A DNA stretch of 62,598 nt, filler included, from Dimargaris cristalligena (lineage: Eukaryota): NCBI GenBank assembly GCA_003614675.1. It is 26 parts of 26 records of this genome, joined end to end, with 100 filler letters (N's around TTAATTAATTAA, not from the genome) between each part and the next. Parts side by side here need not be neighbours in the genome. Positions count along the whole stretch, not along the records: positions 1 to 2,355 come from ML004247.1; positions 2,456 to 4,810 come from ML004248.1; positions 4,911 to 7,263 come from ML004249.1; positions 7,364 to 9,714 come from ML004250.1; positions 9,815 to 12,162 come from ML004251.1; positions 12,263 to 14,604 come from ML004252.1; positions 14,705 to 17,046 come from ML004253.1; positions 17,147 to 19,487 come from ML004254.1; 18 more parts are not named here. The stretch is one strand, 5' to 3'. This document shows positions 1,470 to 57,677 of this stretch, piece after piece (the stretch's first letter is position 1; the number at the start of each line of letters is the position of its first letter). Below the pieces are notes generated by a model, which saw only the letters and a program-made list of their open reading frames with translations, did not search any database and was not told where the DNA came from. The translations under genes and the position numbers were made by a program.

Positions 1470-2043
1470 TGTCACCTGGGTTAACCACTCTTAGTCCATC
1501 AAGAGTCCTAAGAATAGGCTTCTAACAGTAGGTGGGGCTTAGGCTTGGCCAAGCAGGCTACTAGTATTAGGTACAGGTATGGTACTAACTAATAAAGGCT
1601 AAGTGCAGGTATAGGTAAGGGATATACAGTCAGTACACTTACTAGTTAGTATATGGGGGAGTAAGTGTATATAGAATTTATTGGAGGTAAACTAGGGGTA
1701 GGAATAAGCTAAGGAATCTAACCAGTCCCAATGGAGCCCAGTTATATATACACAGGGATAACTCTCGAGGGAGGCCCTAGGGGAAGGATACTACTATGAC
1801 TATAGTATAGGTAAATAGGCCAACCAGACAGCCACAGGTATCTGGAAGACTCTAATAGTAACTAGAAGAGTCTTTAGATCAGCACTTGAGTGATTAGTAT
1901 AAAGAGGTGGAGTCTGGAAGGGGAAAGGTTATATATTATAGGATGATCCCATAGTACTGGGGGTAACCATGGGAAGGTTAATATGGCCTATTAGGGTCAG
2001 ATGTCTATGCTAACTAGATTAAGGTAGATTAGATAGTCCAACA
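1470..2043 (+). mobile_element. Repeat family B solo LTR (~570 bp, TGTCRCCC...GGGCRACA type termini), heavily mutated
   Basis: TG...CA ends; homologous to 7101, 20749, 27086, 33761, 48808 and 57128 copies. Confidence 0.8.
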
Positions 2044-2073
2044 GAGATAACTATTCAAATAAGTGATACTAGA

Positions 2074-2176
2074 TATTGGACCATCTAATATTCCTTAATC
2101 TGGACATCTTAGTGTCCATCCCCATTAGGCCTTATAGCACCATATTAACCTTCCCATAGTCACCCCCAATACTATG
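2074..2176 (-). mobile_element. Family B LTR fragment, tail-to-tail with the previous copy, interrupted by family C
   Basis: Reverse complement of the family B 3' end; cut at 2177 by TGTAAAGAAC. Confidence 0.7.
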
Positions 2177-2355
2177 TGTAAAGAACTGAACTCAAATCCT
2201 TAAAAACTGAACTTTATTCAAAAAGATAGGTGATAAAAGGGAAAGTTGATGATAGACTTGCTGTTCCAAGAGGTGGTAGTAAGTGGGAGTATTTATACTC
2301 GAAAGAGGAAGCCTAAATGAAAAGATGGATGGATAATAGAGAAAGGGAGAGAAGG
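2177..2355 (-). mobile_element. Repeat family C, young LTR 3' end (...AATAAA...GTTCTTTACA)
   Basis: Near-identical to 9550-9714, 26694-26775, 48475-48544 and 55539-55608. TATAAATA and AATAAA lie on the minus strand; every copy is at a contig end. Confidence 0.75.
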
Positions 2356-2455
2356 NNNNNNNNNNNNNNNNNNNNNNNNNNNNNNNNNNNNNNNNNNNNT
2401 TAATTAATTAANNNNNNNNNNNNNNNNNNNNNNNNNNNNNNNNNNNNNNNNNNNN
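2356..2455. other. Artificial contig-join spacer (N44-TTAATTAATTAA-N44); first of 25 identical spacers dividing the window into 26 unrelated contigs
   Basis: Identical 100-nt N-padded linker with stops in all six frames recurs every ~2.4 kb (next at 4811-4910, 7264-7363 ... last at 60214-60313). Confidence 0.99.
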
Positions 2456-2465
2456 AATACTGGCA

Positions 2466-2471
2466 TATAAA
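2466..2471 (+). promoter_or_regulatory. Putative TATA box of the tandem-repeat protein gene
   Basis: TATAAA about 135 nt upstream of the ATG at 2601. Confidence 0.4.
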
Positions 2472-2600
2472 TACGCGTCTCTTGCCCCACCCAAGGTACA
2501 CCATCTTCTTGAGTATCATCAAGTTACTACCAAGTCATACTTTCCCCTTATCATTATAATTTCAACAATTTTATTTCAGTTATTCCAACTCCTGTCCACC

Positions 2601-7100: not shown

Positions 7101-7263
7101 TGTTGCCCGAGTTAACCACTCTTAGTCCGTCAGGAGTCTCGGGGGTAGGCTTCTAACAGTAGGCGGGGCGTTGGACACAGCCAAGCGGGCTACTAGTGTT
7201 AGGGGTGGTGACAAGACTAACCGAATAAAGCAAGCGTAGGACGTAGGCGAGGTCCGTGCACTA
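7101..7263 (+). mobile_element. Family B LTR 5' part, CpG-rich (least mutated) copy
   Basis: TGTTGCCCGAGTTAACCACTCTTAGTCCGTC... aligns with the 1470 copy but retains CpGs. Confidence 0.8.
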
Positions 7264-7363: not shown

Positions 7364-8550
7364 GTTCGAAGTAGGAGGTGTGCGAGATAATGAACTTAAC
7401 GCAGTGTACGCTGGAGCAAGAGGCATTGTAAGCGAGCCACTTCCACAGTGGCCCGAATCAGGGGAGGTATAGCCGGCCGGATTGTAGCATTAGTGATCCC
7501 CATTGAGCTAGGTACTGGAGGACTGGGTAGTAATTTGCACAAGCGGAGGGCCAAATCAAAGTGGACCAGGGCCTCTGGGAACTCGCTCAAATTCTGGAAT
7601 ACCCAACCCAACAGCCAGTGGATAGACACGGCCAAGGGTGAGGGCAAATTCGGCTCTGCCTTAGGCTCCACTAATTCCAGGGTGCACTGGAGTGCCCACT
7701 GGGCCGTATTGTACCATCCGTCATGGAAGTAAGCCTCACCCAGTCCCTCCCAAGCCACTACTCCCGTGTTGCTCCCACCCTTGGGGGCTGAGGACTCGGT
7801 ATTTTTGGAAGTACTAGACATAGTTTTCATAGCCTGTTGGAAGGCCATAATAGCCTTTGACTATTGGCCAGTCTGGTGCAAATAGTCCATTGCAATGAAC
7901 CGGCAGGACCAGGGATTTACCTGCATGACCATTTGGGTAACACAGGCTACTAGAGTCCACTGGTGCTCAGCCACATACAACTGGATCAACTACTAGGTGG
8001 TGTCACTGTTGTTCCGGGGATTGAGTTCAAAAGCCCATTGGTAGCATTTGAGGGCCCACTAGACCAGAGCCAGGGCCGGGTGATTGGAATTCGCCTGGGC
8101 TTCCCATTTGTAGAACCAACCTGACCAAAAGAAGGCCATATCTAGCTGGGGATTAAGGTAGGTGGCTTGCAACCAGGCCTTGAGGGTTAGGAGCTTGTCA
8201 CTCTGGTAAGTCCTGCCCTGATCCCAATAGATGTATCCAAGCTGGAAATAATACTCTGTGGTGCGGGGCTGAAGGGTGATGGCACATTTGATCAACCCCT
8301 TGGCCTCTTCCCAGGCCTGGTTTTGGAAATGGACCTACCTGAGTTTGTCTAGGGCCAAATGATTATCTGAATTCTACTCTGTGATGGTTTGTAGTAGTGC
8401 AACTAATTAGGCAAACTGGCCCTGGGAGTTTAGGACCATGGCGAGTCCCAGTTGTGCCAGCAGGGAGTCGGAGTTTAGGGCCAGCACAACCTTGTACACC
8501 TATTGGGCCTTGGGTAAATAGCAGGCACTGAGGGCCTAGTAGGAATTGGC
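7364..8550 (-). pseudogene. SKI3: SKI3/TTC37 (superkiller TPR protein) pseudogene fragment
   Basis: TPR motifs YFQLGYIYW, WALKCYQWAFELNP and AWEGLGEAYFHDGWYNTAQWAL match Ski3 with R-to-W changes. Many in-frame TAG stops; 5' side cut by a copia LTR at 8551. Confidence 0.8.
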
Positions 8551-9549: not shown

Positions 9550-9714
9550 TGTAAAGAACTGAACTCAAATCCTTGAAAACTGAACTTTATTTGAAAAAAT
9601 AGATAATAAAAGGGAAAGGTGATAATAGACTTGCTGTTCCAAGAGGTGGCAGCAAGGGGGAGTATTTATACTCAAAAGAGGAAGCCTAAATGAAAAGATA
9701 GATGAATAGATCGG
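9550..9714 (-). mobile_element. Family C LTR end
   Basis: Near-identical to 2177-2355. Confidence 0.75.
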
Positions 9715-18026: not shown

Positions 18027-19487
18027 TCAAGGGCCAAGTAGTGGTCGACGTTCATTAGGGGAATTGGTTGTTGACGGAGTGAATCGGTTGGGCCGTGGCG
18101 AAGGCGACATGGCCGACGAGTGTCGGTTATGCCCTAGGCCAGTGGGTGTGGTACCGTACCGACTATTGTTCTGGCGTTCCCGGCGTCTAGCACTAGCGAT
18201 GGCATCGGTCTCTGCATTCAATTCTTCGTCTTCCTGACGGTGGTCCCGCCAGTGTTGGGAAGTACCCGCCCCGCCCCCACTCTGGGGACTCAGACAACCT
18301 CCGTTACCACTCGACGACGACCCGTGGCTATTGGACCCCCGTCGGCCGTCCGTTAGGGCCAGCGTACCGTGGCAGGCTTTGACCAGGAATACCGCGAAGC
18401 CCAGGATATAGAGGCCCAAAAAGACCCACTGGGCGTGGAAAAACAGGTTACTAAAAATGGGGAACTGGAGGGACAGCTGGTCCAGGAAGGCGGAGAGTAC
18501 GGTGGGCGTACATAGATTCGGCGGGGCCCGGGCGTCGCAGGGGACGATCAATTCGGGCTGGTTCGCGCAGTCCGCCAGGAGTGGGGGAGAGATGGACGTA
18601 GCCCCCATCATCAGTTGAGTAGTAGCCGCGGCAGAAAAGGGGGCGTCCGCCCCGGCGGTAGCATTGCAGTAGACTTGGCTGCCGTAGGTTAAGTAGTGGG
18701 GGGCGATATGGGTGGCCAAATTAAAGTTAATGGCCAGCACCCCGAACATGGTGAGGATGCCCAAGAAGAGCAGCGCCTGCGGAGCGGTGGCCCGGGGCCG
18801 GATGGGGTAGAATTGCACCAGACCTAACACCCCGATACCGCGGTAGATAATGGCCACGACGGTACAGAGGACCAAAAACCCGCTCAGGAGCAGCAGTCCC
18901 GCGGCATCAGCGGGGACCATCAGGTGATGTCCCCCGCCCCGCTCGCCCAGCCAGTGGAGGACCAGGGCCACGGGATTCGCCAGGATGGCCGATTCGAAAT
19001 AGTAGCCACAGTCGCTGCCGCAGACGGAATGCCGAATTTTGTCGAGGTTAGTCAAGGCAATGGACAGTACGACGGTCCAGCTCAGCGCAATCCCCGCACA
19101 GCCCAGTAGGACCTGCATCGGGCGGTAGAGCAACGTCGTCGCTAGAGAGGGGCACCACCCCTCGCCGTGACCCCCGCCGGCCCAGCCGCAATAGGGACTA
19201 GCGGGTCGGCAGGCCTCCAACTGGTCCAGAAGTTGGGTTTCCTGGCGCCGCAGTTCTTCGGACAGTTTCCGGTCGCGGGAACTAATGGGCACCCGGACAT
19301 TTTCGTAGCGTACGGTGATGGTGCGTTGCATCTGACGGTTAATTTCCAGGTCCCGTTCGAGCCGGTGGAGATTATGGCGGAGGGCGGCCGACGGGGTGGG
19401 TTGCACGCGGGTGAGGCTGAGCGGCAGCAGGGACAGGCCGAGACTGGTGTAACCGAGGTACACGCCCATGCCCAGGGTCAGTAAGAA
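18027..19487 (-). CDS. LMBRD1: LMBR1-family lysosomal cobalamin transporter (LMBRD1-like); 5' truncated
   Basis: LDKIRHSVCGSDCGY...NP, IRPRATAPQALL, APHYLTYGSQVYC and PCDARAPPNLCTPT motifs; multiple transmembrane segments. Confidence 0.85.
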   Translation of the reverse strand, partial: FLLTLGMGVYLGYTSLGLSLLPLSLTRVQPTPSAALRHNLHRLERDLEINRQMQRTITVRYENVRVPISSRDRKLSEELRRQETQLLDQLEACRPASPYCGWAGGGHGEGWCPSLATTLLYRPMQVLLGCAGIALSWTVVLSIALTNLDKIRHSVCGSDCGYYFESAILANPVALVLHWLGERGGGHHLMVPADAAGLLLLSGFLVLCTVVAIIYRGIGVLGLVQFYPIRPRATAPQALLFLGILTMFGVLAINFNLATHIAPHYLTYGSQVYCNATAGADAPFSAAATTQLMMGATSISPPLLADCANQPELIVPCDARAPPNLCTPTVLSAFLDQLSLQFPIFSNLFFHAQWVFLGLYILGFAVFLVKACHGTLALTDGRRGSNSHGSSSSGNGGCLSPQSGGGAGTSQHWRDHRQEDEELNAETDAIASARRRERQNNSRYGTTPTGLGHNRHSSAMSPSPRPNRFTPSTTNSPNERRPLLGP

Positions 19488-19640: not shown

Positions 19641-20235
19641 AGGTTTTTATGACCTATAATTATTACAGTTATCATCTTTAGCTATAATTATCTAGTTCAG
19701 TCAATTTCTTATATATACTCTAGCAGTATCCCCTCTGTTGAAGAGACAAGTTAATTTTGAGATAAATATTTGTGTGATATGTTATTTTTGATATAAGCCT
19801 CTATTACTCAGAATAATCATTGATATATACTTCACCAGATGACCCCAATAATTACCTTTTACGCAGTTTTACTTGATTATTATTATCACTATTCCTATTT
19901 TGTTTTATTATTTCATCTATTCAGTTCAAAGTTTTGGTATATCTAAGTACTAAATTGATTATAACATTTTTTTATAATGTTTTTATTTTATTTTTCTTAA
20001 CAACTAATAATATGAGATAATGATATCTAACAGAATGAATGACTAGAAAATCAGCAGTGACTTCCCCAAAGCCACCTTGGTCCCAACCCCCTCAAAACTA
20101 ATCAAGCCTAACCCCCTGTACTATATGACTAAGTAGGATGAACCATCCAGGGATAGTAAACTGGAGATTCCTACTCCTACTATCAACCCTCCCAAGGACA
20201 TTCCAGCAGAGCCCCTCAAAACATTGGTATTACAG
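19641..20235 (+). mobile_element. Family A, degenerate copy
   Basis: Aligns with 1-486; ORF broken by TAG stops. Confidence 0.75.
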
Positions 20236-20748: not shown

Positions 20749-21298
20749 TATTGCCCAGGTTATCCACTCTTAGTCTATCAAGAGTTCCAAAGGTAAACCT
20801 CTAATGGTAGTCAGGCTTAGGCTTAACCAAACAGCTACTAACATCAAGTATGGGGTGGTACTAACCCAATAAGGGCAAGTGTGGACACTATGTAAGGGAC
20901 ATGCAGCAGTGCACACTTACTGGTTAGTACAAGGGCAGGTGAGTGTATATAGAGTTTATTGAGTAAGCTGAGGGGGATAAGAATAAGCTAAGGACTGAAC
21001 CAGTCCCAGAGGCGCCCAGTTATTTATACATGGGGACTGTTTATAATGAGAGGTCCTTAAGAGAATGGGATGATTAGGTAAAGAGGTGGGGGACAGGGTC
21101 TTGGCTGAGGGCTTACTTCCGGAAGACTCCACTGGGAAAGGAGGAACTTTGTATTAGCCAGTGTAGTGTGGTGTGAGATGCATTAGGACCTGGCCATAGT
21201 GAGTTATATAGTTAAGGGAGGGGTAATATGGCATTATAAGGCCAGATAGGATGGGACAATCAGCTTTCCATATTTAAGATAGATTAGGTGGGCCAACA
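20749..21298 (+). mobile_element. Family B solo LTR with 5-bp TSD GATTC/GATTT
   Basis: TATTGCCC...GGGCCAACA; flanks 20744-20748 and 21299-21303. Confidence 0.8.
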
Positions 21299-23592
21299 GA
21301 TTTAATAAAGCTTGTGTTAATCATTAAATTTTACATTCCAACACTCCCAACAAAAAAGCACAGCCCGAAAAGCAAATATTGGTTACTGGCCCCATCGGCC
21401 TACTGGATGAAGCAAGGTATAAATTAGAAATGGATTTACATCACCTGGCAAACCTTATGTCTTAATAAAATACTATTTTAATAAACTTATATTTAAATTA
21501 CTCTACTAAATTCATCCCACTAGAAGCCCAACTCGACCCAAACGTAACAGTATCAAACGTGGTGAATAAGATATCTATACGGCACCAGGTGTAGCCATGA
21601 GAACACACTATGACACAATAATCGCTAATATGAGCTAGTCGCGCGAAATGGCCTTACCTTGACTAGGCCGAAGTGGGCGGAAAGACACAATGATATATAT
21701 TACAAATAGAATTTTTGTCGCTTGAAAGGTTTATTACACTTCCTATACTAGTGTGGCGATATACCTCAACGACACCAAAACAACAAAAAAAATGTAATTA
21801 AAAAATATACCTGGCAAAATAAAACTGGACCAATTTATGATCACATCAAACAAATGTTTCCAAATCGAACCACCAAGTATCATCGATGGTGATCGACTTT
21901 ACGTGAACACAAACTTGGGTANNNNNNNNNNNNNNNNNNNNNNNNNNNNNNNNNNNNNNNNNNNNTTAATTAATTAANNNNNNNNNNNNNNNNNNNNNNN
22001 NNNNNNNNNNNNNNNNNNNNNCAGCCGTTCATAGTTATATATATATTTCTCATTTCTTATAAACCTCGAATTAGCCGATTTACCTCGCACATTATTTTCA
22101 ACTCTCTTATTTTTCACTTAGTCTATTATTTTCATATTGCTCTATTTCTTTTTAGTAAATAAATTTGTAAAAAACCACAATGTCCTTCTCACCGCAAAGC
22201 ACTTCTACAACCCCACTGTTGGCCGCACTACAATCTGCCAATAACGAGGTCCCTGATAGTGGTTCGAACCTCCCGCCGAGTTTCCCGGCTTTTCCCCCTC
22301 ATGACGTAATCCCCGACCTAACCGGTCCACCGGGTCTCGACGCTACACATACAATATTGTTTTTATTGAAGCAATGGGCGGGTGCAATATCACAAACTTC
22401 GCAATTGTGGTGATAGGTGGAAAAATAATCAGCCGGGGTGGGTCATCAATGGGCAAAATGGATACCTGCTAAGGGTGATTATACTTCAAGTAGGTCTAAG
22501 TGGGAGGCAACCAGGATATGGTGCCATCCTAATAAACTTGAGAGTGGTGGGGGGGACCATCATTACCGTAGGAGGTTGGACAAGGGCCCTAACAGGTGTT
22601 AATATGAGGTAAAGTAGGACTGCAAAGGGAGTTATCTTGAGATGTTCAAATACGGTAGAAGGGGGGTTGGCAGCAAGTGATGCAATGCGACACAGAATAC
22701 TATATATTTCAAGGTACAGCTTCAAAGCCAATCGGGTCACTGATTGTCCTGGCCTAAACAATTACACCCAAAGAGACTGCAGCGGAGATAATGGCTTGGA
22801 GGAACGAAGTGGACTGCACAGTGTATACACTCGGGAGTATTTAACTAGGCATGGCTGAAGGTGAAACAGGTATAACAAATGGGCTGTGGCGGAAAACTTA
22901 GGTTGGAAAGGCCTGTGGAGTGGGTGAAGCTGGAGTATACGGCAATTAATATATTAATATTGCTATTAAGGGGCGGGTCACTGGTTTCTTGTATATTTCA
23001 GACATTCTACTGGGGGGAACCGGCAGCCCATTGTCAGTGTCTAAATACACATAGTAAGTCATAACGACCCTCTGCCTGATTTAAGAAATGACCAACAAAA
23101 GCACTATATGCTTGTGGCCCACTCTAACCCATGCAATGTCCTATTGGTAATGAAAAAGGCCATCCAGATAAGGCCTACTGGAACATTAGGTGGGCCCTGT
23201 CATGCCACGTCCACTAGCCCACATCAGTGGCTCTAGCAATGACCTTCGCCTTTGTACAAAAATATAAGTGGTTTTGTAGTGCCATCTGGAGGTCAGCACT
23301 TATCCCCAGACTATGGACAGCCAGTCCTCATTGTCAGAGGGCGGAATATGCCATGATATGCAATAGCGGTATCATTCCTGTCATTTACCCACAAAAAAAA
23401 ATATACTGCCTATACTGTAGCATATACAAAAAACTAACAAAATATTATTTATTTCTTTATACTCATGGTTTGTATTAAAAAAGTCTGCCATTCTTCCTTA
23501 CATTTAAAAGTCTGGCCTATTTTTCAGTATATTCCTTATCATTCCATCTTGTTCCATTCTTAACCCTTTTTCTACATCCCTTTCCTTGTATC

Positions 23593-24349
23593 TGTGTTGC
23601 CAACAATTTGATGTGCTCCGCTGGCATGCCTTTGGGAGAGTCGGCAGGAGGGGTAACCTCCGGTTTCTTTCCACTAGATGACTTGCCATACTTTGTCATG
23701 TAATGGGGAGTGTTGGACTTTGCTGGGTTTAAGGGGGTTGAGACCGAGGTGGCCTTGGGGAAGTCACCGCTGAGTTCCTGGTTGTCCATCGCGTTGTACA
23801 TCATTATCTCATGTTGTCGGCTGAAAAGAAAAGTCAAATAAACTTAAAACCGTTACAAGAAAACGTTATAGTCAAACGGTATAATCGAATTGGTACTCGG
23901 AGATACCACAAATTCAAACTAAGTAAATGAAAGTAAAATAAGTTAGAAGTAATGGCAATAAAATAACTGATAATAGTAAAACTGGGTGAAAGGTTAATTG
24001 CCGGTATCATCTGGTGAAGTTAAAATATATATTTATTTGTTTATCTTGAAACTAACTTGTCCCTTCAACTGAGGGGACACTACTAAGATATATATAGGAA
24101 AATGACCAAACTAAATAACTATAGCTAAGAGTAATGCTGCAATAATTGTAGGACATAAAAAAAACCTAAAGATAGGGGAAAAATTGACCTACTGGCTAAA
24201 CTATGGTTGTGAATAGGTTAAAAAAGGAAGCAAAATATAGAAATTGGAAGGTTGGAAGATACAGTCTTCTAGGTTCTCCTCCATGTTGGATATTGATAAA
24301 ACTGACAAAAAGGGAATTCATGCTAAGAAATTGTATGGCGTGATTCCCA
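23593..24349 (-). mobile_element. Family A 3' two-thirds, including the read-out ORF (23517-23837)
   Basis: Begins TGTGTTGCC on the + strand; aligns with the other family A copies. Confidence 0.8.
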
Positions 24350-24907: not shown

Positions 24908-25004
24908 GGTGGCAACATCAGATGGAAAATGTGGGACTCAGGTCATGGGCCTTGAGGTGTCCAACTAGTAGTTTGTCTTGGAGGTCCACTGCTTGACTAG
25001 TAGC

Positions 25005-25760
25005 TAAGTGGGACAGTCTGACAGTGTTGTTGTGGACATGGCTGGGGCAGTGGAGGACCATGAAGTCATATTCCTGAAGGGTTGGGTACTATTATTTGAG
25101 TTGGCTGGAGCAGGGTGTGGTTGATCAGAGCCACTGCAGAGGGGCATGGTCCATTTTAATGGTAAAGTGCTGGCCATATAAATAGGGTTAGAATTTTTTT
25201 AAAGCAAATAGGATGGCCAGGCATTTGCATTCAGTAACTGAATAGTTTTATTGCATAGAATCCAACTGTGCATTGGCATACACAACTATATGCTTATACC
25301 TTTCCTCCTCTTGTGTGAGTATGGTGCCCACACCAGTATTGGAAGCATTAGTCTGGATGATAAAGGGCTTGGTGAAGTCCAGATAACACAGGATTAGGTC
25401 ACTGGATAGGTATTTTTGTAGTTTATCAAATACTGCTTATTCTTTAATAATCCACATAAAGGGGGTGTCCTTCTCGGTCAGGCTGTGGAGGGCAGTGGAG
25501 CACATTATAAAGTTCTGGATGAACTAGTGATAGTATGATACTAGGCTGAGGAAACTCTGGATGTCCTTGACAGTAGTGGGAATTGAGATGTTTTTGATGG
25601 CCATGATTTTGTCAGGACTGGGCTGGATGCCATCACAGGCAATGACATGGCCTAGGGAGGGGGCTTGATAAGCTCTAAACAGGCATTTGCTGCATTTGAG
25701 CTGTAGCCCATATTTACAGAGTGTATCCAGTACTAGTTGCAGGTCCTTGCAGTGTTTGTT
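25005..25760 (-). pseudogene. Degenerate Ty3/gypsy pol fragment (RT C-terminus and RNase H)
   Basis: Translation LQLKCSKCLF...LGHVI...GIQPSPDKI...VKDIQSFLSLVSYY*...PFIIQTNASNTGVG...NYSVTECKCLAI...PYLYGQHFTIKMDH...LQEYDF, with stops. Confidence 0.9.
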
Positions 25761-25957
25761 GGTGGTGTAGCAAGGTGAAGTGTCCCCCTAATTGTCCCAG
25801 GTACAAACTATTAATATTTAATTATTATATTTATATACAAGGTATGAAGTGGCTTTTTTGTCTGGTATATCCAGTTTTTTTTCCTTCCCTTTTAACCCAT
25901 TCCATCTATATGAATTTTTCCTTTGATTTTATTTATATTTCTATTAGTAGATGTATG

Positions 25958-33760: not shown

Positions 33761-34025
33761 TGTCAGTCCTCCTAATCTGACCTAATCCAGACTTAATGAT
33801 TATCCACCCTTATTAGGCCTTATAGTACCATATCAACCCTCCCATAGTTACCCCTGGTACTCTGAGACCATTATTCAGTATATAATCCTTCTCCTTCCTG
33901 CCCCAATGCTTTGCACAAAAACACTCAACCTACTAATCCAAAGACTCTTCTAGTTCCCATGAGAGTCTTCCAGATGTGAAGCCATCCAGTCAGATCCTAT
34001 ATCTACCTATACCTTAGTCTTAGTA
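33761..34025 (-). mobile_element. Family B LTR, truncated by the contig end
   Basis: TGTCAGTCCTCCTAATCT... aligns with the 27086 copy. Confidence 0.8.
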
Positions 34026-34619: not shown

Positions 34620-35997
34620 AGTGGGGAACTGGAAGGGGAAGGCGTAGAGGGGTTGTGAAGGTGTGTTCCGAATCGGGCTAGTCACAAGCGGATAGTGTGA
34701 ATGAAACAGAAGAAAAAGGGGGCTGGCTAATGTGGATGGGAGGGAGAGTAAGGAATTTTCGGTCGAATCGCTGGGTAGATTGATACACTTTGGCAAAATA
34801 GGCCAAGGGATAAATAATACGTAAGGAGGATTACGGTTCGCTACATGCGAAGTGGATGCTAAAATTGACCGGTTGGCTTTGGCAGCCTAAGGAAAAAGAC
34901 ACACACTACTGCTTTAGTGATGCATAGAGTGAGGGGTTGGTAACAGCGGGTCCTTAGAAAGTAAGAGGGTGTGTGTAGTGGTGGTGGGTATTCCGTAGAG
35001 AACTGTACGAAACACTCGGCGAGTAGAATATTAGCAGGAGTTGCTTGCTGGTTGAGTAGGAGAAGGATTAGAAAAGGGGGAGTCACTATTAGTGGTCGAG
35101 GAAAAAGAGAAATTAGGAGAAGAAGCTGGAAAGGGGAAGGACACCCGTTGGTATTTAAGAGTAAGACTTTTCACCAGTGTCCGGGTTCTGTAGTTCGAGG
35201 TTGATTGTTCGGCCTTGATGAGCAGCAGAAAACTTGGGTGGTTGAACAATGGCGTGGACCAATGCGGGCGAATAGAGCCGCGGGGCATTGGAGGATGAAT
35301 GTAATTGTATGCTGTATGCAACTAGCGGAAGGTATCAGAAAAACTACCACTGACTGAGTAAACGTGCGATTACTAAGCGGAAAGATGTACAACAAGATGG
35401 AATATACCCGACCTTTGCTATATTTATATTTTTAAGCATGCCCAGCCGTAGGGGAAATTAGCCTTCAGATCCACAAATTGCTTTAATAAGAAGCTCCCCG
35501 GAAATTAGATAGTGCTGGCACGTTGGCTTCACGAATCAATAGAGGCGATCGTTGTGGTTAAATTTGGACCTTCGCCGAGCACCAAACTGACAGTAAACCC
35601 ATCTTGACGCCAGGGCAAAGGGTGTGTAATTAATTAGGCTGAAGCACCCATAGGGGAGGAAGAACCAGGCGGCTGCCCACTACTAGTCCTATTTGGAAAA
35701 GGAATTCGTGAAGAAATAGTCCAGTTTGGGACAATCATGGATATAGTGAAGGAACGGCTGGTTATTTTATTTAGAAACGCAAGCCGCTCGTGGATGTATA
35801 GTAAGTAAGCAGTGCCGTCGGTATTTTTATTATTGAGTGTAATGAGCCAACTGAGGCCTACTTACAGGGGATGTGTGTGGGCCACACTTGCCATTCGATT
35901 GGGAGAGGTGTCGGCTTGGACCAATATGGGCAGTTCTAAGGAGAGACAGTGCACGGGGGGGATAGGTACTTCTATATATCTGTATACAAATGCATAT

Positions 35998-36133
35998 GGG
36001 AGAAATTCAAACCAGCTGTATAAGGTTTTACATAATACGTGTATGGGCGAATATATGTGAGAATAACTTTTAACCAGTAATATTGGCCTCATCCAATGGA
36101 TTTTTCATTATACAGCCTGAATGAACTTCTCCC
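35998..36133 (+). mobile_element. MITE family E, best-preserved copy
   Basis: ATAT-GGGAGAAATTCA...TGAACTTCTCCC-ATAT. Confidence 0.75.
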
Positions 36134-36527
36134 ATATATAGATGGATGTATATATATATATTCTTACTTATAAATATGTGAGGGGGGGCCTGACGATAGA
36201 AAAGCAGGGGGGTCGCCCAATCAATGTACGCGCCGTCCCGTACAAAGCTCGTGTCATTTGGAGTGTAGCACGTTAAGGCAGGCGTCTCAGTGGAGAGCCG
36301 AATCGGATGAACACGCCAAGGACTAGTAGTCATCGAACCTTTGGCCCTGGGCCCTGAATCGTCAAAGAATAACACCACGCATGAACCCCGGGGTGATATG
36401 ATAAAAATCCCCCTGATTGGTCCACGCNNNNNNNNNNNNNNNNNNNNNNNNNNNNNNNNNNNNNNNNNNNNTTAATTAATTAANNNNNNNNNNNNNNNNN
36501 NNNNNNNNNNNNNNNNNNNNNNNNNNN

Positions 36528-39969: not shown

Positions 39970-40524
39970 TTAGTCGTACATGTAAATTCGGGAGGCGATG
40001 TCGCCCACAATCCAGTCCATGCCTTCCAAAAGATTTTCGCCCGTTACGGCACTACAGGGCAAAACGGACCAGTGGTGGGTGGTAATATCGCGCAGCCGCA
40101 ACCGGTCGATGATTTCGGCGGTACTCAACGCCCCTTGAATGTCCTGTTTATTAGCCAGTACCAGCAACGACGCCCCCGCGAGTTTCTCTTCCTTTAACAG
40201 CCCGGCCAGTTCCTGGTGACAGTCCGGCAAACGGAGGTGGTCCACGGCGTCCACGACCCAGACTAACCCATCAGTTTGTTCGAAATAATTCCGCCAGTAC
40301 GACCGGAGGGACTTTTGCCCGCCAATGTCCCAGACATTGAGCTTGTAGGCCCCGTGGACGAGGGTCTTGATGTTAAACCCTAAAGTAGGGGAAATGGTGT
40401 CAATGGGCTCGCCGTTGATCTTCTTGAGAATCGTGGTTTTGCCCGCATTGTCGAGCCCGAGCATCAGGATGCGCATCTCCTTCTCCTTCTGGCGGTTCTT
40501 GCGGAGTATCGTGAGTAGACCCAT
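39970..40524 (-). CDS. ARL2: ADP-ribosylation factor-like GTPase 2 (184 aa, intronless)
   Basis: [53 protein letters not shown] and NKQD; the real start is the ATG at 40524. Confidence 0.95.
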
Positions 40525-43102
40525 GGTGCCGCGGGGGAGGGTGATTGTAAAAGCTATGTCGGTGGTTAATGGTATAGCCCGATAAAATAAAATACAAAGA
40601 AAGGAGATGACGTTTATGACAAGGTGGGGATTGACTACCCGAGTTAGTATGGTATGGAATGGCACATGGGGGGATTAGCTAAACCCCGGGAACGTCCATT
40701 GGAAGGTGCGGTCCAATTCGGCCCATTTGGAAAAGTATGCCAAAAAATAATAATGACTGGGTCACACTGGGCGGAGTTTCATACATTACATATTGTACTG
40801 GTAAGTAAGTAGTCGGTGGGTCTGACGCGGCCTTTGGTCCAGTTGATTTACGGGGGGTTTCTGCTTACGCGACCCGATTTTCCGGTTGGAGCACCAGCGG
40901 AGTCACCCGCTAGTATATAAATATAAGGAAAACACCAATTTTTAAGTAGGGCCCAATCTAGCTTGAAATGGTCAAGTATTCACCGCCCGTTGGGGTTAAC
41001 TAAACCGGGGCTAAGTATCGCCGGCTGTGGTAATTTGTCTTTTACAGCGAAATAGAATTTTAAAGATCCCGTACCTCGCTACCCAGGGATTCCAAGCAAA
41101 ACAAAAGGGTAGCAACACTGCAACCGCCAGGCGAGGCGGAACACCCAACTATAGAGCGACTAGGACATCCGGCCAATGAAATCGTCCNNNNNNNNNNNNN
41201 NNNNNNNNNNNNNNNNNNNNNNNNNNNNNNNTTAATTAATTAANNNNNNNNNNNNNNNNNNNNNNNNNNNNNNNNNNNNNNNNNNNNATTCTGCTATCAT
41301 GAGATCATTCATATTAGCCACTTATATTTCACCCCACAGAAAATTACAGTTCAATAAAACTAACCACCTAGAGGCACCTGCCATCCTCTAGCTACTTTCT
41401 TTCCTTTCTTCCAGTTTTATTTCCTTTAAGTCCTTGGTATTCTAACAGTTAAATGCTTAGCTGGATGTGTCACTCTTTTGCAGTCACCCGCTAAATGCAC
41501 CATGTCTGAGCATTAATTGGCTAGGTTCCAGTGGGAGGAACAGAAGTGACGACCAACTGAGGAGAAGAGTCCATCACTTATGGATGTAATTTTTAAAAGA
41601 CATGGTGGCAATGAGGTTGCATAGGTGGAATGGCCCCGAAGGGATAGAAATGCCTTAGACTGTCTCTCTGCTTATACTGTTACTAGAGAGAGAGGCCGTT
41701 AGAAATACAATTGAGCATGAATTCTTGGAATGGGTACCTTAAACCCCCAGGTGTGGCAACCATACCAAAGGCAACTATTACCTAGCCATGGCTGTAATCT
41801 CCAAAAACACTCAGTGAAACAATGATGCATCCATCAGAATTTCCTGGGGTATAATTTTTTTGTATATCCTTTGTCATACCCGTAGCATAGGATCCAACTA
41901 CATAATAGAGAGTTCCAACCGATCCATCATCACTGAAAAAAAATGTTTTATGGTCAGCACCACCACTCATGAATTCATTAGTGTGCAGCATTTTAGTATA
42001 TTCCATTCAGCAGCAATTGAATGAGTGCGTATTCATTATTATATGAAAGCATGGTGCGCGGGGCCATATTAAACCGGTGACTAGTGCATGGTTTAGCTAC
42101 TAGCACTTTGATATAGTTCCAGTATTTGGGTTAAAACCCGGCATGATCCCAATCAATAATAACTGCACTATGACCATTGTGGACTATAATGCTACGTTGG
42201 GCTAGATCACCATGGGTTAAAACAATGCTAAATCAGTAGGTAAAAACTGTCAAACGAAAGTTTGGGATTCATCACTTAAAATACCTAGGGGGATAGATAT
42301 AGAAGCTGTGACGTTTCACGTTTCACGTTACATATCTAATATATAATCAATTATTGATGTATCTGTCTGCATTGCTTCTATAATTATTCAACAGTCCGAG
42401 TCATTACTGCCTTACATTCTTATGTGGTATCCTGGCTTTACTCCAACACACCATAATTACACTTCGGCCTAACAACTACACCAACCTTTTATAAAGAATG
42501 TCCTCAGTGGACGTGTAATAAAAACAGGCATTATCATTCCCAACAACCTGTACCATCAAACTTACAATTACTGTACTTGTTTACTAGCTTTTATCCATCT
42601 TACTTACACACCTCAAATAAACCTTTATCTTAACACCAACATTGGCTTTGAATGATGTGGGGTTACTTATTACTTCCTATATTGTTACAACATAGGCTAT
42701 CCAGCGCTACAGCATCAACAGTATCCCACCTACAAGGGTGACGCCACCAATACCCGAAACAATTCCCACTATAGGTTTACCCTACTGGCGTACATCAAAA
42801 AAATCACACTCGCCTTTATTTGTTGCCAACTCCATCTTTATCTTATTTGGCCATTTAGCATAACTATTATACTTAACGACCTAAGCGAGCCTTCCAAGTA
42901 CACATAGATAACTAGCGGAAATCCCACTGCTCTTTGGAAGGGGTCAATTGCTGCCTTCTCGCATTCTACCGTTCGGTCTTCCGTTCCCCATTTTGTTACC
43001 CTCTTCTGCAGCTTTAGATTTGCCCTCTGGGGTCGTGGAAGATGGCAGGTTTGCAGAGTTGGAGGAGACCGGGGCGTGGGTAGATGTGGCCATGGTGGTG
43101 GA

Positions 43103-48807: not shown

Positions 48808-49390
48808 TATTACCTGGGTTAACTACTCTTAGTCCATCAAGAGTCTTAGGGATAGGCTTCTAATAGTAGGTAGGGCTTAGGCTCAGCTAAGTAGGCTACT
48901 CGTATCAGGTATAGGTATAGTATTAATCAAAAAAGGCATAGGCAATTAGGTATATAAGGGACATGCAGTAGGAATACTTACTAGTCAGTATAAGGGGGTA
49001 AGCATAAATAAAGTTTATTGAGGTAAACTAGGGGATAAGAATAAGTTAAGGAATCTAACAAGTCCCAAGGGGACCTAATTATATATATGTAGGGGGGCAG
49101 CTCCAGAGGGAGGCCCCAATAGGACTTACTACTAGACTAATAATATGATGAATAAACCAACTAGATGGCCATGAGGACCTGGAAGACTCTAATAGTAACT
49201 GGAAGAGTCTTTAGATCAGCAATGGATTAATTAATATGAAGAGGTGGAGTCTGGAAGGGGGAGGGTTTTATAATATAGAAGGATCCTATAGTACCAGGGG
49301 TGACTATGGGAAGTTATATATAGCACTATATGGCCTAGTTGGGATGGATGATTACTACACCTGGATTAAGTCAGATTAATAGGTCCAACA
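48808..49390 (+). mobile_element. Family B solo LTR, very TpA-rich copy
   Basis: TATTACCTGGG...GGTCCAACA. Confidence 0.8.
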
Positions 49391-50151
49391 TAGCTAAAGA
49401 GCTAGTTAAAATAAATAGGGCAGAGCTTAAAAGGACAGGGCTTATAATTATATTATAGGGTTAGTACAATTATAAGTATAAATATAACCCCACCTACTAT
49501 GCTGGTACTCAATTGAGTATTAGCACTAGCCCTACCCTTTCTGGGTATGCCCCCTCCCCATTACAATAAAGATTAAGTCTCTTTGGCTTATATTGGTGGC
49601 AATGGATGAGTGGATGATATAGGAGGGGAAGGTTATATCCGTCCCCTAAAGGTCACGTGACCTGAATATGATGGGCCACCTTTATGGATTTTACCCTATA
49701 TAGTTAGGTTGAACTTCACCCACATGTATCAAATAGAACAGAAAGGGAACCTCCAAGATCCATAGAGGGGAGTGGGGGGCACTGTATAAGTCTATTACCA
49801 GTCCTAGGCCGGGTATTATAGTTATCCCAATGCTATTCTTACTAGCCAATATAGTGTATTCTATATATAGAAGGGTCTACCACTAAATAGCCCAGCGCCT
49901 ACTAAGGATAGTCAATATGACCGTAACAATAGTATAAAAATCGGACATGTCCGCCCCCATGTTATCGACACCCACTTCAACAGATATTCTATACTCACTC
50001 TTATTCTCATTCGCATCCCCACTGCCACCCCAAATACTATTACTTTCACTATTACACTACTTTAACTATCCTTGTATTACACTGATAAACCATTTGATTA
50101 CTAGCTTATTCTAACCCCACTCTACACCAGCCCAATTCACAGCTATCCATC

Positions 50152-50766: not shown

Positions 50767-51146
50767 NNNNNNNNNNNNNNNNNNNNNNNNNNNNNNNNNN
50801 NNNNNNNNNNTTAATTAATTAANNNNNNNNNNNNNNNNNNNNNNNNNNNNNNNNNNNNNNNNNNNNTGAATGTCTAAGTGACATTCATACTGTTTTGCAT
50901 TTTAGGGGCACTGGTTAAGATAATGCAATTATATTTGCTCTTCCTGATTATTGCTATATTGTGCTATTAATGACTTATCCAGCTTGGTAGTTGATTACTC
51001 ATGACTATATCATGGCCCCTTACGCCATAGTCTAGTAGTCTTGCTGTTCATGTAACTTTTAATTTATATGTTTGTTTTGAGCTATTCACATACATACAAT
51101 CAATCATAAATATTCCATTTTTCTGGTTCCCATCAATGTACAATAT

Positions 51147-51281
51147 GGGTGAAATTCGGCGCAGCTGTAAAAGGGTTAAAATAATATGTATATATGATAA
51201 TAGGTGGGATACTCATTTTGACCAGTAATATATACCTTATCCGTCGGATTTTTTGCTAAACGGTCTGGATGAACCTCTCCC
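51147..51281 (+). mobile_element. MITE family E
   Basis: ATAT-GGGTGAAATTC...GAACCTCTCCC-ATAT. Confidence 0.7.
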
Positions 51282-53275: not shown

Positions 53276-54763
53276 TATACTCTCAAACCAACGCTTGCCG
53301 AAGTGAAGACCATTCTGGCGGAAACCGGCGCTAATGTTGTCCCGATCTACCAGGAAATTCCGTCCGATCTCCTCACGCCGGTATCGGCATACCTAAAGAT
53401 TGCCCAGGGCAGTGACTACTCGTTTCTCTTCGAGACCGTCGCCGAGAAGGAGGTCACCGGCCAGTACTCGTTCCTGGGGGCCCAGCCCTATGAAGTCATC
53501 CGGACCGGTCCCCAGGAGGCCCGGGCGGTGGATCCCTTGGTGGATGTGGAATCGCGCCTTTCCCAGATTAAGTACGCCTCGGTGCCCGGTCTGCCCACCT
53601 TCACGGGCGGGGCCGTGGGTTACATTTCCTTCGATTGCATTAAGTACTTTGAGCCCACTACCGCGGTTGATCTGAAGGATAACCTGGGTATTCCCGAAAG
53701 CGTCTTTATGCTGGTGGACCAATTGGTGATTTTCGACCACCGATTCAATTTAATCAAGGTGGTGGCCCATATTCGGACCGATACCGATTCCCAAAGCAGC
53801 GTGGATCAGCTCTACCAGGAGGCCCAGGCCCGCATCCAGGCCACCATCGCGTTGCTTAACACCGCCGAGGTACCCTTGCCTCCGCAGGGCCCCATCCGCT
53901 TAGGCCAGGAAGGTACTTCCAATATCGGTCAGGCCGGCTACGAGGGCATCGTGGAGGAGCTCAAGAAGAACATTATACAGGGGGACATTTTCCAGGCCGT
54001 ACCTTCCCAACGAGTGGCCCGCCCCACTGACTTGCACCCGTTCAATGCCTACCGCTACATGCGGACCATCAACCCGGTGCCCTATATGTTCTATCTTCAT
54101 ATCAAGGATTTCCAAGTCGTCGGAGCTTCTCCTGAAATGCTGGTGCGCGTCCATGACCGCATTGCGTACACCCACCCCATTGCGGGAACCCGCAAACGGG
54201 GGGCCACCCCGGCGGAAGACCAGGCCCTCGCCGACGACCTACTGGCCGATACCAAGGAGTGCGCCGAGCATGTGATGCTGGTCGATCTCGGTCGTAACGA
54301 CGTCAATCGGGTGTGCAAGCCCGAAACGGTGAAAGTGGACTCGTTGATGAAAATCGAACGGTACAGCCACGTCATGCACATTGTGAGCAAAGTGAGCGGT
54401 GAACTGCGGCCCGACCAGACGGGCTTCGATGCCTTCCGTTCCATTTTCCCCGCGGGTACCGTGAGCGGCGCCCCGAAAGTCCGGGCTGTGCAGCTGATCA
54501 GTCAGTACGAAGGAGAAAAGCGGGGCATTTACGCCGGCGCCGTCGGCCATTTCGGCTTCTCCGGCGATTTGGATACCTGTATCGCTATCCGGTCCATGCT
54601 ATTCAAGGATGGCGTGGCCTACCTCCAGGCCGGCGGCGGAATCGTCTACGACTCGGTGCCCTTGACGGAATGGGAGGAAACCCTCAATAAAATGCGATCC
54701 AGTATCAAGACCATCGAAGGTGCCGAACTTTACCATCACCAACTGCAGCAACAACGGCAATAA
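53276..54763 (+). CDS. TRP2: Anthranilate synthase component I; main exon (first exon is off the contig)
   Basis: DLLTPVSAYLK, GDIFQAVPSQR, GASPE, PIAGTRKRG, EHVMLVDLGRND and FPAGTVSGAPK motifs; CATTAG acceptor at 53275 followed by YTLKPTLAEVK. Confidence 0.95.
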   Translation, partial: YTLKPTLAEVKTILAETGANVVPIYQEIPSDLLTPVSAYLKIAQGSDYSFLFETVAEKEVTGQYSFLGAQPYEVIRTGPQEARAVDPLVDVESRLSQIKYASVPGLPTFTGGAVGYISFDCIKYFEPTTAVDLKDNLGIPESVFMLVDQLVIFDHRFNLIKVVAHIRTDTDSQSSVDQLYQEAQARIQATIALLNTAEVPLPPQGPIRLGQEGTSNIGQAGYEGIVEELKKNIIQGDIFQAVPSQRVARPTDLHPFNAYRYMRTINPVPYMFYLHIKDFQVVGASPEMLVRVHDRIAYTHPIAGTRKRGATPAEDQALADDLLADTKECAEHVMLVDLGRNDVNRVCKPETVKVDSLMKIERYSHVMHIVSKVSGELRPDQTGFDAFRSIFPAGTVSGAPKVRAVQLISQYEGEKRGIYAGAVGHFGFSGDLDTCIAIRSMLFKDGVAYLQAGGGIVYDSVPLTEWEETLNKMRSSIKTIEGAELYHHQLQQQRQ

Positions 54764-55538
54764 TAGTGGCCATTGCAATTGGCTACCAAAATTTACCTAT
54801 CGGCTCTTGATTTTTGATTTATTTCGCTTTTTTTTTTAAAAAAAAAACAACAACTATATTTATATCTATTATTACCAAACATGAGGTAGGAATTGTCGGT
54901 GCGGATTGGCTGTTGAGTTCAAAAACGAAATCGATCATTCGTATCCGCCTTTGACATCATTTGGGAATGACCACCTCCTTCCATACGCTATAACAGTTTG
55001 ACTAAATTTAGCTGAAAAGCCACCCATTCTTCTTCGTTCTTTTTTATAATATAAAATTATATTTAAAACACGTCCCAATTAGAGGCCGTGGATTATAATC
55101 ATTCCGTCTGCTGGGTGATCCGCCCGTCTAAGTCGCTTTGACCATTTTCCAAGCCGGCACCCCGTTTTTTCCACCATAGATGCGTATACATTTGACACAA
55201 GGGGGTGCTAAATGGGGGCGGTCTGCTAATGTGGGGCCATCTTACCAATAGCCCCTTGGTTTAAACATCCGCTGGGCCCGTGTAGATTTCAGTAATTGCA
55301 TGCGGTAGTATATAACGGCAGCCCCATTTCATCATTTGTTGAATCGTATGGCTGGCTGCTGGGATGCCACCTGGCCACGGGATTACGGCTAAACCGATAA
55401 GAATGCCATGGCGGGGGTATTCAAGCGGACTTAGAATGNNNNNNNNNNNNNNNNNNNNNNNNNNNNNNNNNNNNNNNNNNNNTTAATTAATTAANNNNNN
55501 NNNNNNNNNNNNNNNNNNNNNNNNNNNNNNNNNNNNNN

Positions 55539-55608
55539 CCTTTCCCTTTTATTATCTATCTTTTCAAATAAAGTTCAGTTTTCAAGGATTTGAGTTCAGT
55601 TCTTTACA
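55539..55608 (+). mobile_element. Family C LTR end nested in copia pol
   Basis: Matches the 48475-48544 copy. Confidence 0.75.
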
Positions 55609-56445
55609 CTAGGAATCCATGTTACCCAAGAGGACGTCAAAGGTGGTAAGCAAATTTGTTTATACCAACAAAAATATATAGATAACTTGTTAGTTAATTA
55701 TTCTATGATTGACTGTAACCCAGCTAAAACCCCCATAGAAACAGGGTGTAAACTGGTTGCTGCCACCTCTGATCTTGATACAGAGGACATCCCTTTTGCC
55801 AACTTAATTGGAAGCCTCATGTACCTAGCAAACTCAACAAGGCCTGACATTGCCTACACCATCAATAGGTTAAGTACATTTAACTTTAGGTCAGCCTCTG
55901 AGCACTGGCAAGCTGCAAAACATGTCTTATGGTACCTAAAAGGAATGAAAAACAGTGGACTTACCTTTAAAAAAGGTGACAAACTGTGACTAGAAGGAGC
56001 CACTGATAGTGACTGGGCAAACAGCCCCACTGACAGGAAGTCAATCACCAGGTACATTTTTGTTTTGGCCAGTTCACTAATTAGTTGGGCATCAAAGAAA
56101 CAAAAGATCATTGCCACATCCACTGCTGAAGCCAAGTACATCACCCTATCTGAAGCCATTAAAGAAGCAATCTAGTTAAAGGCATCACTGGAATTCCTGG
56201 GTGAAACCATGCCTACAGTGACCATTGATTGTGACAACACAGCTAGCATTGCCATGGCAACCAATCCGGGAAACCATAATTGAACCAAACATATAGATAT
56301 TCATTACCACTTTATTCATGACTATATTGAAAAAGGAGTAGTAAAATTAAACAAGGTAGTGAGCGAAAAACAAAGGGTGGACTTCCTAACTAAAGCCCTT
56401 AGTTTACCAGCCTTTTCTCACTGTTTTCAGCTCTTTGGATGGGAT
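55609..56445 (+). pseudogene. Degenerate Ty1/copia pol (RT C-terminus and RNase H)
   Basis: IGSLMYLANSTRPDIAY, TDSDWA...DRKSIT, ATSTAEAKY, TKHIDIHYHF and DFLTKAL motifs, with in-frame stops. Confidence 0.93.
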
Positions 56446-56465
56446 AATAATAAATGAAAGGGGAA

Positions 56466-56725
56466 TGTTGGAAATTCATTTCCCCCGTCCCACTGATTCC
56501 ATCTCTGTGATTGGCCCATCCTATACTCAGGACTATTTTCTAGCCATTACTATATCATTCTACACCTTGGACTTTGTTCTAATCATTATTAATGCTATTA
56601 TACAATTCAATAAAACCAACCACAGGCATCTAGCCTTACCCCTTGTAGTTCTTTCTCTCTTCTTTGAATCTTTTCAGTTGTATATGAAGGCACTTGTATT
56701 TACCATTCAATCTATATTTCCAACA
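56466..56725 (+). mobile_element. Copia 3' LTR (family D, 260 bp) preceded by a polypurine tract
   Basis: Polypurine tract at 56456-56465; perfect 10-bp terminal repeat TGTTGGAAAT/ATTTCCAACA. Confidence 0.88.
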
Positions 56726-57127
56726 TGATGTGACTCTACTGGGTTGTTGGGCACCAGACCATGATGAGGAAGCCAGTCAGAACAACCAGTCCATAAGTGA
56801 GAAAGGGTACAGCAGGGGTAGTAAAGGAGATTATTCAGTCAGTGACATGATATGAAAATGCTTGGAGCATAATATTACCAGAGGAATACAAGTAAATGAA
56901 TTATAACCAAGAAAAATACTTCATTCATATCAAAATATACATAATCAAATACTGTCATTACTTTACAATTTTGCTCTTTGATGGCCTTGTTAGGAAAATA
57001 ATCAATTAATAACTTACATTTTAAAGAAGAATTTATTTAGGAATAATAATTTAGCAAAGTATGCAAAATGATGTTGACTAGTTTGCTCCTCTGAACTTAG
57101 GAGCATAATTGATGTGTTTAAATATCC

Positions 57128-57677
57128 TATTGGCCTGCCTAATCCTTCCTAAATATGGAACACTGATCACCCTATCCAATTACCTTATAGCACCATATTA
57201 CCCCTCCCTCAACTATATAACCCACTATGACCAGGTCCCAATGCTTCTTACACTATACTCCACTGGCTGATCCAATGACCCTCCTCTCTCAGTGAGAGTC
57301 TTCCAAAAGCAAGCCCACCTAGTCGAAATTCTAACCCTCACCTCTTCTACTAGTCATCCCATTCCCTTAGGGACCCCTCACTATGAGCAGTCCCCATGTA
57401 TAAATAACTGGGCCCCTCTGGGACTGGTTCAGTTCCTTAGCTTATTTCTTACCCCCATAGTTTACCTTAATAAACTCCTTATATGCTCACCCATTGTATT
57501 AGCCAGTAAGTGTGCCCACTGCATGTCCCTTGCATTAGCCTACACTCATCCTTTATTGGTTAGTACTGATCCCTCCCTAATACTAGTAGCCTGCTTGGCT
57601 AAGCCTAAGCCCCACCTACCATTAGAAGCCTATCCTCGAGACTCTTGATGGACTAAGAGTGGTTAACCTGGGTGACA
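57128..57677 (-). mobile_element. Family B solo LTR with perfect 5-bp TSD TATCC
   Basis: TATCC at 57123-57127 and 57678-57682. Confidence 0.88.

Follow-up and report, generated by a model that had tools for sequence, protein, structure and literature searches.

What removes cytosines from the repeats of a fungus outside the Dikarya, at CpA as well as at CpG? The question is raised by a stretch of 62,598 nucleotides of Dimargaris cristalligena DNA (the window), taken from an assembly of 30.65 Mb in 2220 contigs (GCA_003614675.1) and made of 26 contigs of ~2.3 kb joined via N/TTAATTAA spacers. A first-pass annotation had described in it a repeat-restricted decay of CpG and CpA at 1470..57677, and had attributed it either to a homology-dependent mutator of the RIP type (repeat-induced point mutation), or to CpG and CpA methylation and deamination. 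The signature is present there, but the 26 contigs are unlinked, and the span 1470-57677 is therefore a set of separate pieces, not one locus. Counts in 44 old copies of a long terminal repeat (LTR, family B), in a second repeat (family A), in duplicates of a tetratricopeptide repeat (TPR) gene and in genomic tiles confirm a real CpG-plus-CpA decay of repeat domains in a non-Dikarya fungus, probably a variant of methylation-linked repeat decay rather than RIP.

The position of the host outside the Dikarya, suspected from the start, is supported by similarity, not by a tree: TRP2 of the window shares 76% identity with its counterparts in Dimargaris verticillata and Dispira simplex, the next fungal matches listed reaching at most 64% (full length), and the DNMT1 of this genome has five matches only, all in Dimargaris, Dispira or Tieghemiomyces (44-45% identity). 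These similarities place the host in the Dimargaritales (Zoopagomycota).

Spectrum and course of the decay

Family B is a 585-bp LTR with TGT...ACA ends and a 5-bp target duplication, exact in 5 of 41 copies and matching at four or more of the five positions in 12 of 41; two genome-wide searches returned 634 and 967 candidate copies, 40 being scored in each. These termini and duplications led us to reject its interpretation as a miniature inverted-repeat transposable element (MITE) with long inverted ends, the reverse matches coming from a second fragment inside the query. Old copies were studied in an alignment of 44 full-length sequences from the window and other loci, chosen by likeness to a decayed copy (two of them, C38 and C157, have their 5' part in common). 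Only 25 of 1624 CpG-type sites survive in them, and the 40 CpG-type column pairs read CG 25, TG 578, CA 527 and TA 494 times out of 1717 (93 other). Old copies of the window keep 1-2 CpG per 550-590 bp (observed/expected ratio, o/e, 0.04-0.08), versus 11 in 163 bp at 7101; this last copy, previously taken as the CpG-rich member of the family, is CpG-rich as described, but is merely a 163-bp piece of a younger subfamily. The changes quoted from it can be read literally: the 7101 copy contains GGCGGGG, AAGCGGG, AACCACT and GCCAAG, where the 48808 copy has GGTAGGG, AAGTAGG, AACTACT and GCTAAG.

Does loss at CpA exceed what CpG decay alone would leave? Outside CpG-type columns, C>T changes affect 324/1122 CpA (28 sites), 152/2647 CpC and 189/2999 CpT, i.e. 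CpA is changed five times as often as CpC/CpT taken together (341/5646; per-site Mann-Whitney p 3e-15), and the excess thus persists after the correction for CpG decay that had been set as a test. Of the 44 old copies, 18 begin with TAT and 21 with TGT, the TGT>TAT change noticed earlier (3' terminus: ATA in 26, ACA in 16), and all 30 young copies analyzed begin with TGT; the termini thus indicate polarity independently of any column rule. A second counting method, using triplets and changes private to one copy relative to its two nearest neighbours, gives CpA 220/880 versus CpC/CpT 201/4621 (CpA/CpY 5.75). That the CpA signal might stem from hidden ancestral CpG was rejected on three grounds: the removal of the 40 column pairs, the termini and these triplets. 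Standard RIP indices, calculated as had been advised, are uninformative here (substrate index 0.72-1.12 in old B copies) because CpG decay replenishes CpA and TpG.

A CpA excess is also found in family A (29 copies left of 33, 4 near-duplicates being removed), with 142/1145 CpA versus 175/3229 CpC/CpT changed and a triplet-method CpA/CpY of 5.76, and in family D (2.75 in CpG-poor tiles). Private changes of the TPR copy of the window, relative to two other copies, affect 20/42 CpG, 11/139 CpA, 0/200 CpC and 1/138 CpT. Damage had been reported in gypsy, copia and SKI3 sequences as well as in family A: all are decayed, but gypsy, copia and SKI3 were named from motifs picked out by eye, the copia-like open reading frame (ORF) having no match when tested against Pfam, and the 'SKI3' piece (the TPR duplicate) giving sub-threshold TPR matches only.

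The decay is gradual. In the 5' 160-260 bp of thirty young B copies, 95 CpG out of 405 are gone, with 0-6 losses per copy (mean 3.1, variance 2.2), and 19 of the 27 with at least two changes are affected on both strands; young B LTRs, 91-98% identical, carry few and strand-mixed changes. Copies of family A grade without a break from 24/35 CpG kept down to 0/46, CpA changes and doubles increasing late. The per-cytosine CpG:CpA dose ratio is 7.1 in young B (where it rests on 10 events), 5.9 in the 14 least-decayed A copies and 6.1 in old B, and the partition of changes between strands fits a binomial in old (p 0.55 for CpG, 0.85 for CpA) and young copies (p 0.29). The CG>TA doubles, pointed out earlier, occur at 0.30, versus 0.23-0.29 expected if a CpA-type step comes after CG>TG/CA: two sequential steps suffice, and a one-step CG>TA mechanism was discarded as unneeded.

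Confinement to CpG-depleted domains

Over 200 kb of the four largest contigs, CpG o/e is ~0.6-1.1, the exceptions being a few 1-kb bins, located on repeats or adjoining them, where it falls under 0.45. Over 174,361 non-repeat, non-ORF bases (contigs G000:C1-C4), o/e is 0.75 for CpG, 0.98 for CpA and 1.05 for TpA, while a simulated fivefold CpA rate genome-wide would give 0.62 for CpA and 1.48 for TpA. Single-copy DNA away from repeats, judged by composition only, is spared, and the SER1, TRP2, ARL2 and LMBRD1 pieces are CpG-rich, as previously described (o/e 0.92-1.02). Away from known repeats TpA is not under-represented and CpG is mildly low, which may reflect relics of old decayed repeats.

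Among repeats themselves, a tile test was applied to 794 kb of non-redundant sequence (200-bp tiles, 623 with two relatives): CpA/CpY is 3.65 in the 340 tiles with a local CpG o/e under 0.25, 1.79 in the 142 (including young LTRs) where it is at least 0.6 and 2.8 in the 141 in between, CpC, CpT and T>C rates remaining at background. Non-LTR repeats in CpG-intact DNA (67 tiles) have no excess (CpA/CpY 0.89; 28/754 vs 46/1108, p 0.72). Family C, a MITE-like repeat of 145 bp with ATATGGG...CCCATAT ends and 1070 candidate places genome-wide, many of them 95-99% alike and within gene-rich DNA, gives 0.74 in CpG-intact DNA, with 8/31 CpA changed in three CpG-poor tiles. From these three results, the CpA excess appears to track the CpG-depleted domain rather than repetition as such. 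In the TPR duplicates, CpA/CpY is 6.5 in the CpG-poor part and 1.65 (p 0.14) in the CpG-rich part.

At least six partial copies of this TPR gene are known (window 7364-9714; G000:C2120, C2147, C1668, C1551, C1437 and C193), three of them being 100% alike across 2.1 kb; their CpG content declines in a gradient toward the repeat-adjoining end, and no intact original gene was identified among them.

No TpCpG preference was found, either in young B (TCG 8/149 vs ACG 41/226) or in family A (TCG 382/980 vs ACG 238/497), and the effect of sequence context in tiles is p 0.06, with ACG highest. There is no CHG/CWG or CAC/CAG preference either (CAN p 0.25; CCG 2/176, CTG 31/1073), and a weak 5' purine bias at CpA (p 0.02).

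The decay also reaches beyond the repeats. Around old LTRs (32 flanks with <5% known repeat, from 43 old copies, 'unique' meaning unmatched in the 794-kb sample), CpG o/e is 0.12, 0.04 and 0.13 within 200 bp, 0.28 at 200-300 bp, 0.44 at 300-500 bp and 0.67-0.77 farther away; it is 0.62-0.86 beside the 145-bp MITE. An insertion preference for CpG-poor DNA is a disfavoured cause of this gradient, as CpG o/e within 300 bp of young insertions is near normal (0.51-0.66; 9 unique flanks of 31).

Methylation, mutator or RIP?

Searches for DNA methyltransferases with PF00145 (2/2 candidates), TIGR00675 (3/3) and a full-length Dimargaris DNMT1 query (2/2) returned only contigs G000:C729 and C715. The C729 gene encodes RFD, BAH and methylase domains, the contig ending inside the catalytic domain, and full-length relatives have the same domains; among solved structures, its product is closest to DNMT1/MET1-type chains (E 9e-39), and entry 9baq, which we take to be Neurospora DIM-2, comes behind them (E 2e-16). 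Domain content and similarity thus identify it as a gene of DNMT1/Masc2 type, and C715 presumably resembles DNMT2, by its motifs. The search recommended earlier therefore yielded DNMT1-type and DNMT2-like genes, but RID/Masc1 or DIM-2 were not found with profiles and the DNMT1 query, in an assembly that is fragmented and incomplete, so that their absence is not proven. Regarding DNMT5, the longest frame (C315) among 14 SNF2 matches looks by eye like a Rad54/ATRX-type helicase, and not like DNMT5; TET/JBP had no match in the incomplete assembly, and UDG-family matches are two in number, one a UNG-like exon of the host and the other a UNG of viral type, neither being by eye TDG/Mug-like, a weak absence for the same reason.

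We favour, with moderate confidence, a DNMT1-type methylation of repeat domains, at CG first and CA second, combined with unrepaired deamination. Long repeats (LTR retrotransposons and adjoining DNA) would become cytosine-methylated domains, written by the host DNMT1/Masc2-type enzyme, which we infer to act on CpA too, the effect being strong at CpG, about one sixth of that at CpA and little at CpC/CpT. The 5-methylcytosines (5mC) would then deaminate passively, T:G mismatches would be poorly repaired, and copies would decay clock-like, CpG being lost first on either strand, followed by CpA/TpG, including those freshly derived from CpG (giving CG>TA). The methylated domain would extend ~300-500 bp beyond the repeat edge, with CpA still affected after CpG loss, so that targeting is probably chromatin-guided and not CpG-templated. 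A decay dominated by CpG>TpG/CpA, symmetric, gradual and restricted to repeat domains fits 5mC decay of the DNMT1/Masc2 type; the methylation/deamination half of the earlier proposal thus fits.

Several points nevertheless weigh against this explanation. In family A and old B, CpG is lost at ~40-50 times the background, compared with 10-15 times for the loss of methylated CpG in mammals. The CpA load of old B copies (0.08-0.57) exceeds binomial noise (p 3e-5) and is uncorrelated with private background divergence (rho 0.10, for a proxy of just 4-45 events per copy) or with flank CpG (rho 0.04), an unevenness that could mean episodic attack. CpA damage reaches 29% with CpGs gone, and is therefore presumably not just collateral to CpG maintenance. 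The CpA excess of young B copies is not significant (8/512 vs 14/1682, p 0.2), and the DNMT1-type gene is truncated by a contig end. The CpA mutations of Zymoseptoria tritici have moreover been argued not to come from passive deamination (PMC8016269). Uneven CpA load, CpA damage without CpG and high CpG dose together keep an active mutator in play.

Such a mutator, in which the C-to-T change at CpG and CpA of heterochromatic repeats would be made, during vegetative growth, by the DNMT1-type enzyme itself or by a partner, is a possible but doubtful explanation. It would be likened to the Dim2-dependent mitotic CpA mutator of Zymoseptoria, which offers a precedent (PMC8016269), but would be CpG-first and without RID. 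It would account for a CpG dose far over background, with complete CpG erasure at only ~2-3% private background divergence in old B, for a CpA heterogeneity between copies unlinked to the age proxy, and for CpA damage going on after CpG loss. However, the changes are Poisson-like and strand-mixed, with no processivity, Zymoseptoria spares CpG whereas it is the main target here, and no DIM-2-class gene was found in the fragmented assembly. A version working free of RID and DIM-2, in which DNMT1 would drive a mutator that finds long repeats de novo, acts past CpG loss and actively converts CpG/CpA during growth, seems rather unlikely; if true, it would make of a zygomycete-grade fungus a living model of the state ancestral to CpA-directed RIP.

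True RIP (premeiotic, dependent on homology pairing, ancient or recurrent, and superimposed on ordinary CpG decay) is improbable. Its CpA hallmark is clearly enriched in old B copies, the 145-bp MITE escapes as a repeat below the ~400-bp RIP threshold would (PMC3318451), RIP leaks into flanks (PMC4014442), and DIM-2 can mediate it via a heterochromatin route (10.1101/115501). Many rounds would also blur the strand bias of old copies. Within a copy, RIP mutations are burst-like and strand-coordinated, a pattern from which the binomial strand partition, and a variance below the mean in young copies, depart. CpG is also lost about six times faster than CpA at every age, young LTRs of 91-98% identity are lightly and strand-mixedly changed, the four old copies paired on a contig show no greater damage than others (CpA load 0.08, 0.23, 0.23 and 0.37 vs a median of 0.30), the duplicated CpG-rich TPR part is largely spared, and no RID-like match was found in the fragmented assembly. 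The homology-dependent mutator first proposed is not supported by these data, with their mixed strands and affected flanks.

A bias independent of methylation, from late-replicating or poorly repaired heterochromatin, or from reverse-transcriptase/deaminase editing of retrotransposon cDNA, would suit an effect that tracks CpG-poor domains, and is very improbable. Integrase requires intact LTR termini; the TG...CA termini are mutated, and the change therefore came after integration. Non-retrotransposed gene duplicates and flanks are affected too, on both strands equally, CpC, CpT and T>C staying at background. An artefact of amplification, sequencing or alignment, suggested by the fragmentation of the assembly and by contig ends that are duplicated and inverted, is hardly credible for an effect that is context-specific and age-graded, that four repeat families show under two ways of counting, and that leaves genes and the 174,361 non-repeat, non-ORF bases unaffected. 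The sequencing runs listed comprise 5 DNA holders in 2 studies, and no RNA holder.

Contents of the window and comparison with known systems

Table 1. Repeats, decayed duplicates and control sequences located in the window
Feature	Position	Strand	Basis or remark
Family B LTR, old full-length copy (TGT...ACA)	1470..2046	+	1 CpG left
Young-subfamily copy of family B LTR, 5' 163 bp	7101..7263	+	11 CpG; contig ends inside the copy
Family B LTR, old diverged copy	20751..21298	+	
Family B LTR, old copy	27097..27665	-	missing from the first-pass list
Family B LTR, old, high CpA load (0.46)	48808..49393	+	5' terminus TAT (C2060)
Family B LTR, old copy	57119..57677	-	
Family B 3' fragment	33761..34025	-	0 CpG; within contig of CpG o/e 0.04
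Family A repeat, partly decayed	1..486	-	CpG-richest of aligned copies
Family A repeat, heavily decayed	19644..20235	-	
Family A repeat, intermediate decay	23587..24349	+	
Family A repeat, intermediate decay	25952..26693	+	
Family D repeat end, CpG-poor	9550..9714	+	also 2177-2335, 26694-26774, 48477-48544, 55539-55608
Family C 145-bp MITE-like repeat, control	35990..36137		also 30061-30201, 30343-30489, 51145-51285
Broken gypsy-like RT/RNase H stretch, many stops	24950..25900	-	motifs by eye; 1 CpG in 951 bp
Broken copia-like RT/RNase H stretch	55612..56500	+	motifs by eye; CpG o/e 0.11
Broken TPR gene duplicate ('SKI3'), CpG and CpA decayed	7364..8530	-	at least 6 related copies
TRP2 gene, intact and CpG-rich (control, host marker)	53276..54763	+	composition, similarity
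SER1, intact CpG-rich control gene	58188..59400	-	composition
ARL2-like Arf GTPase exon, CpG-rich control	39970..40530	-	composition
Membrane-protein gene piece ('LMBRD1'), CpG-rich control	18027..19487	-	composition; no Pfam match

Other pieces of the window are of different kinds. Positions 36528-38827 are bacterial, with a GC content of 61% and conjugation genes resembling trbE/virB4 and trbJ (matched below curated cut-offs); this contig probably represents a contaminant or an associated bacterium. The AT-rich, gene-dense and CpG-intact contig at 14705-17046 (CpG o/e 1.04, TpA 0.57) contains a leucine-rich repeat (LRR) gene, a weak XPA-like match and one ORF with relatives on G000:C1619 and C1547; another locus (L179, G000:C2211) carries, by eye, a UNG and a primase-helicase-like ORF. 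These four contigs are possibly giant-virus DNA spared by decay, and a capsid match in a Dimargaris genome has been reported (PMC13533422). A Pro-rich frame of 525 aa at 2767-4344 (+), with tandem 114-bp (38-aa) repeats, is CpG-rich and without Pfam match. Two inverted segments of 594 bp (29302-29895 and 31029-31622), 99% identical, CpG-erased (2 CpG) and located at both ends of one contig, either are an artefact, arisen in amplification or in assembly, or result from palindromic duplication of recent date. Elsewhere, a small multi-copy gene family without Pfam match (L042 1400-2200, L043 1400-2400 and L045; 73-77% alike) has CpG-rich cores amid CpG-poor surroundings.

How does this decay compare with those described in other fungi? 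Among early-diverging lineages, Phycomyces blakesleeanus transposable elements (TEs) carry CG and CHH 5mC, with DNMT1 and DIM2, and Linderina pennispora has repeat 5mC; 5mC is confined there to repeats, as proposed here for D. cristalligena, LTRs being more methylated than DNA elements (PMC11258239). Such 5mC is the likely source of the footprint observed here, although the available data describe methylation and not a mutation spectrum, and Phycomyces has a DIM2. The 'RIP' of Entomophthorales also concerns members of the Zoopagomycota in which no DNMT candidate is clearly orthologous to RID, but is documented by composite dinucleotide indices in windows, with no alignment-based spectrum and in another subphylum (PMC11105155). 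The present results bear on such index-based calls. The Bigelowiella hypermutation (T/A>C/G at TpA) is not comparable (10.64898/2026.01.13.699255), and other related work is cited for completeness (PMC7862722, PMC8298701). Supplements aside, no report of a CpG-plus-CpA spectrum in Dimargaritales or Kickxellomycotina was found in the open-access literature, and a kingdom-wide k-mer screen is reported to confine CpA-type RIP-like signatures to a few ascomycete classes (PMC12543289).

Resemblance to RIP is partial: repeats lose C at CpA and die in both cases, but the preferred target, burst pattern and enzyme found differ. Neurospora crassa and other Pezizomycotina share with D. cristalligena the CpA>TpA changes in repeats, the sparing of short repeats and the reach into flanks (10.1101/115501), whereas here CpG goes first, the decay is gradual and strand-mixed, young near-identical copies persist, no RID/DIM-2 was found and the host is not a Dikarya. 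In Zymoseptoria tritici, Dim2-dependent mitotic mutation also converts CpA to TpA in methylated repeat regions, sex not being necessarily needed, but spares CpG (>98% of C>T at CpA), unlike the CpG-dominated decay described here, for which the candidate enzyme is DNMT1-like and not Dim2 (PMC8016269).

The closest parallels come from one survey (PMC4352252). Microbotryum, Puccinia and Melampsora, with Dnmt1 class IIA/Masc2 only, show a CpG-signature C>T decay of TEs: as in D. cristalligena, repeat-restricted CpG>TpG is the main change, and only a DNMT1/Masc2-type gene with RFD and BAH was found, but their signature is at CpG only, whereas a strong secondary CpA signature, without TpCpG preference, accompanies it here. 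Tuber melanosporum TEs have the same order (CpG predominant, CpA secondary), but in an ascomycete with RID/Masc1 and Dim2 classes, neither of which was found in our host assembly. If plain CG and CA methylation were shown, it would be a modest extension of known biology; our reading predicts a measurable CpA methylation by a fungal DNMT1, and offers a directly testable route from passive methylation decay to RIP. In the survey, each genome with a CpA signature carried RID/Masc1 (PMC4352252); a CpA signature with only a DNMT1-type enzyme found breaks this link, and CpA>TpA in repeats is thus not diagnostic of RIP.

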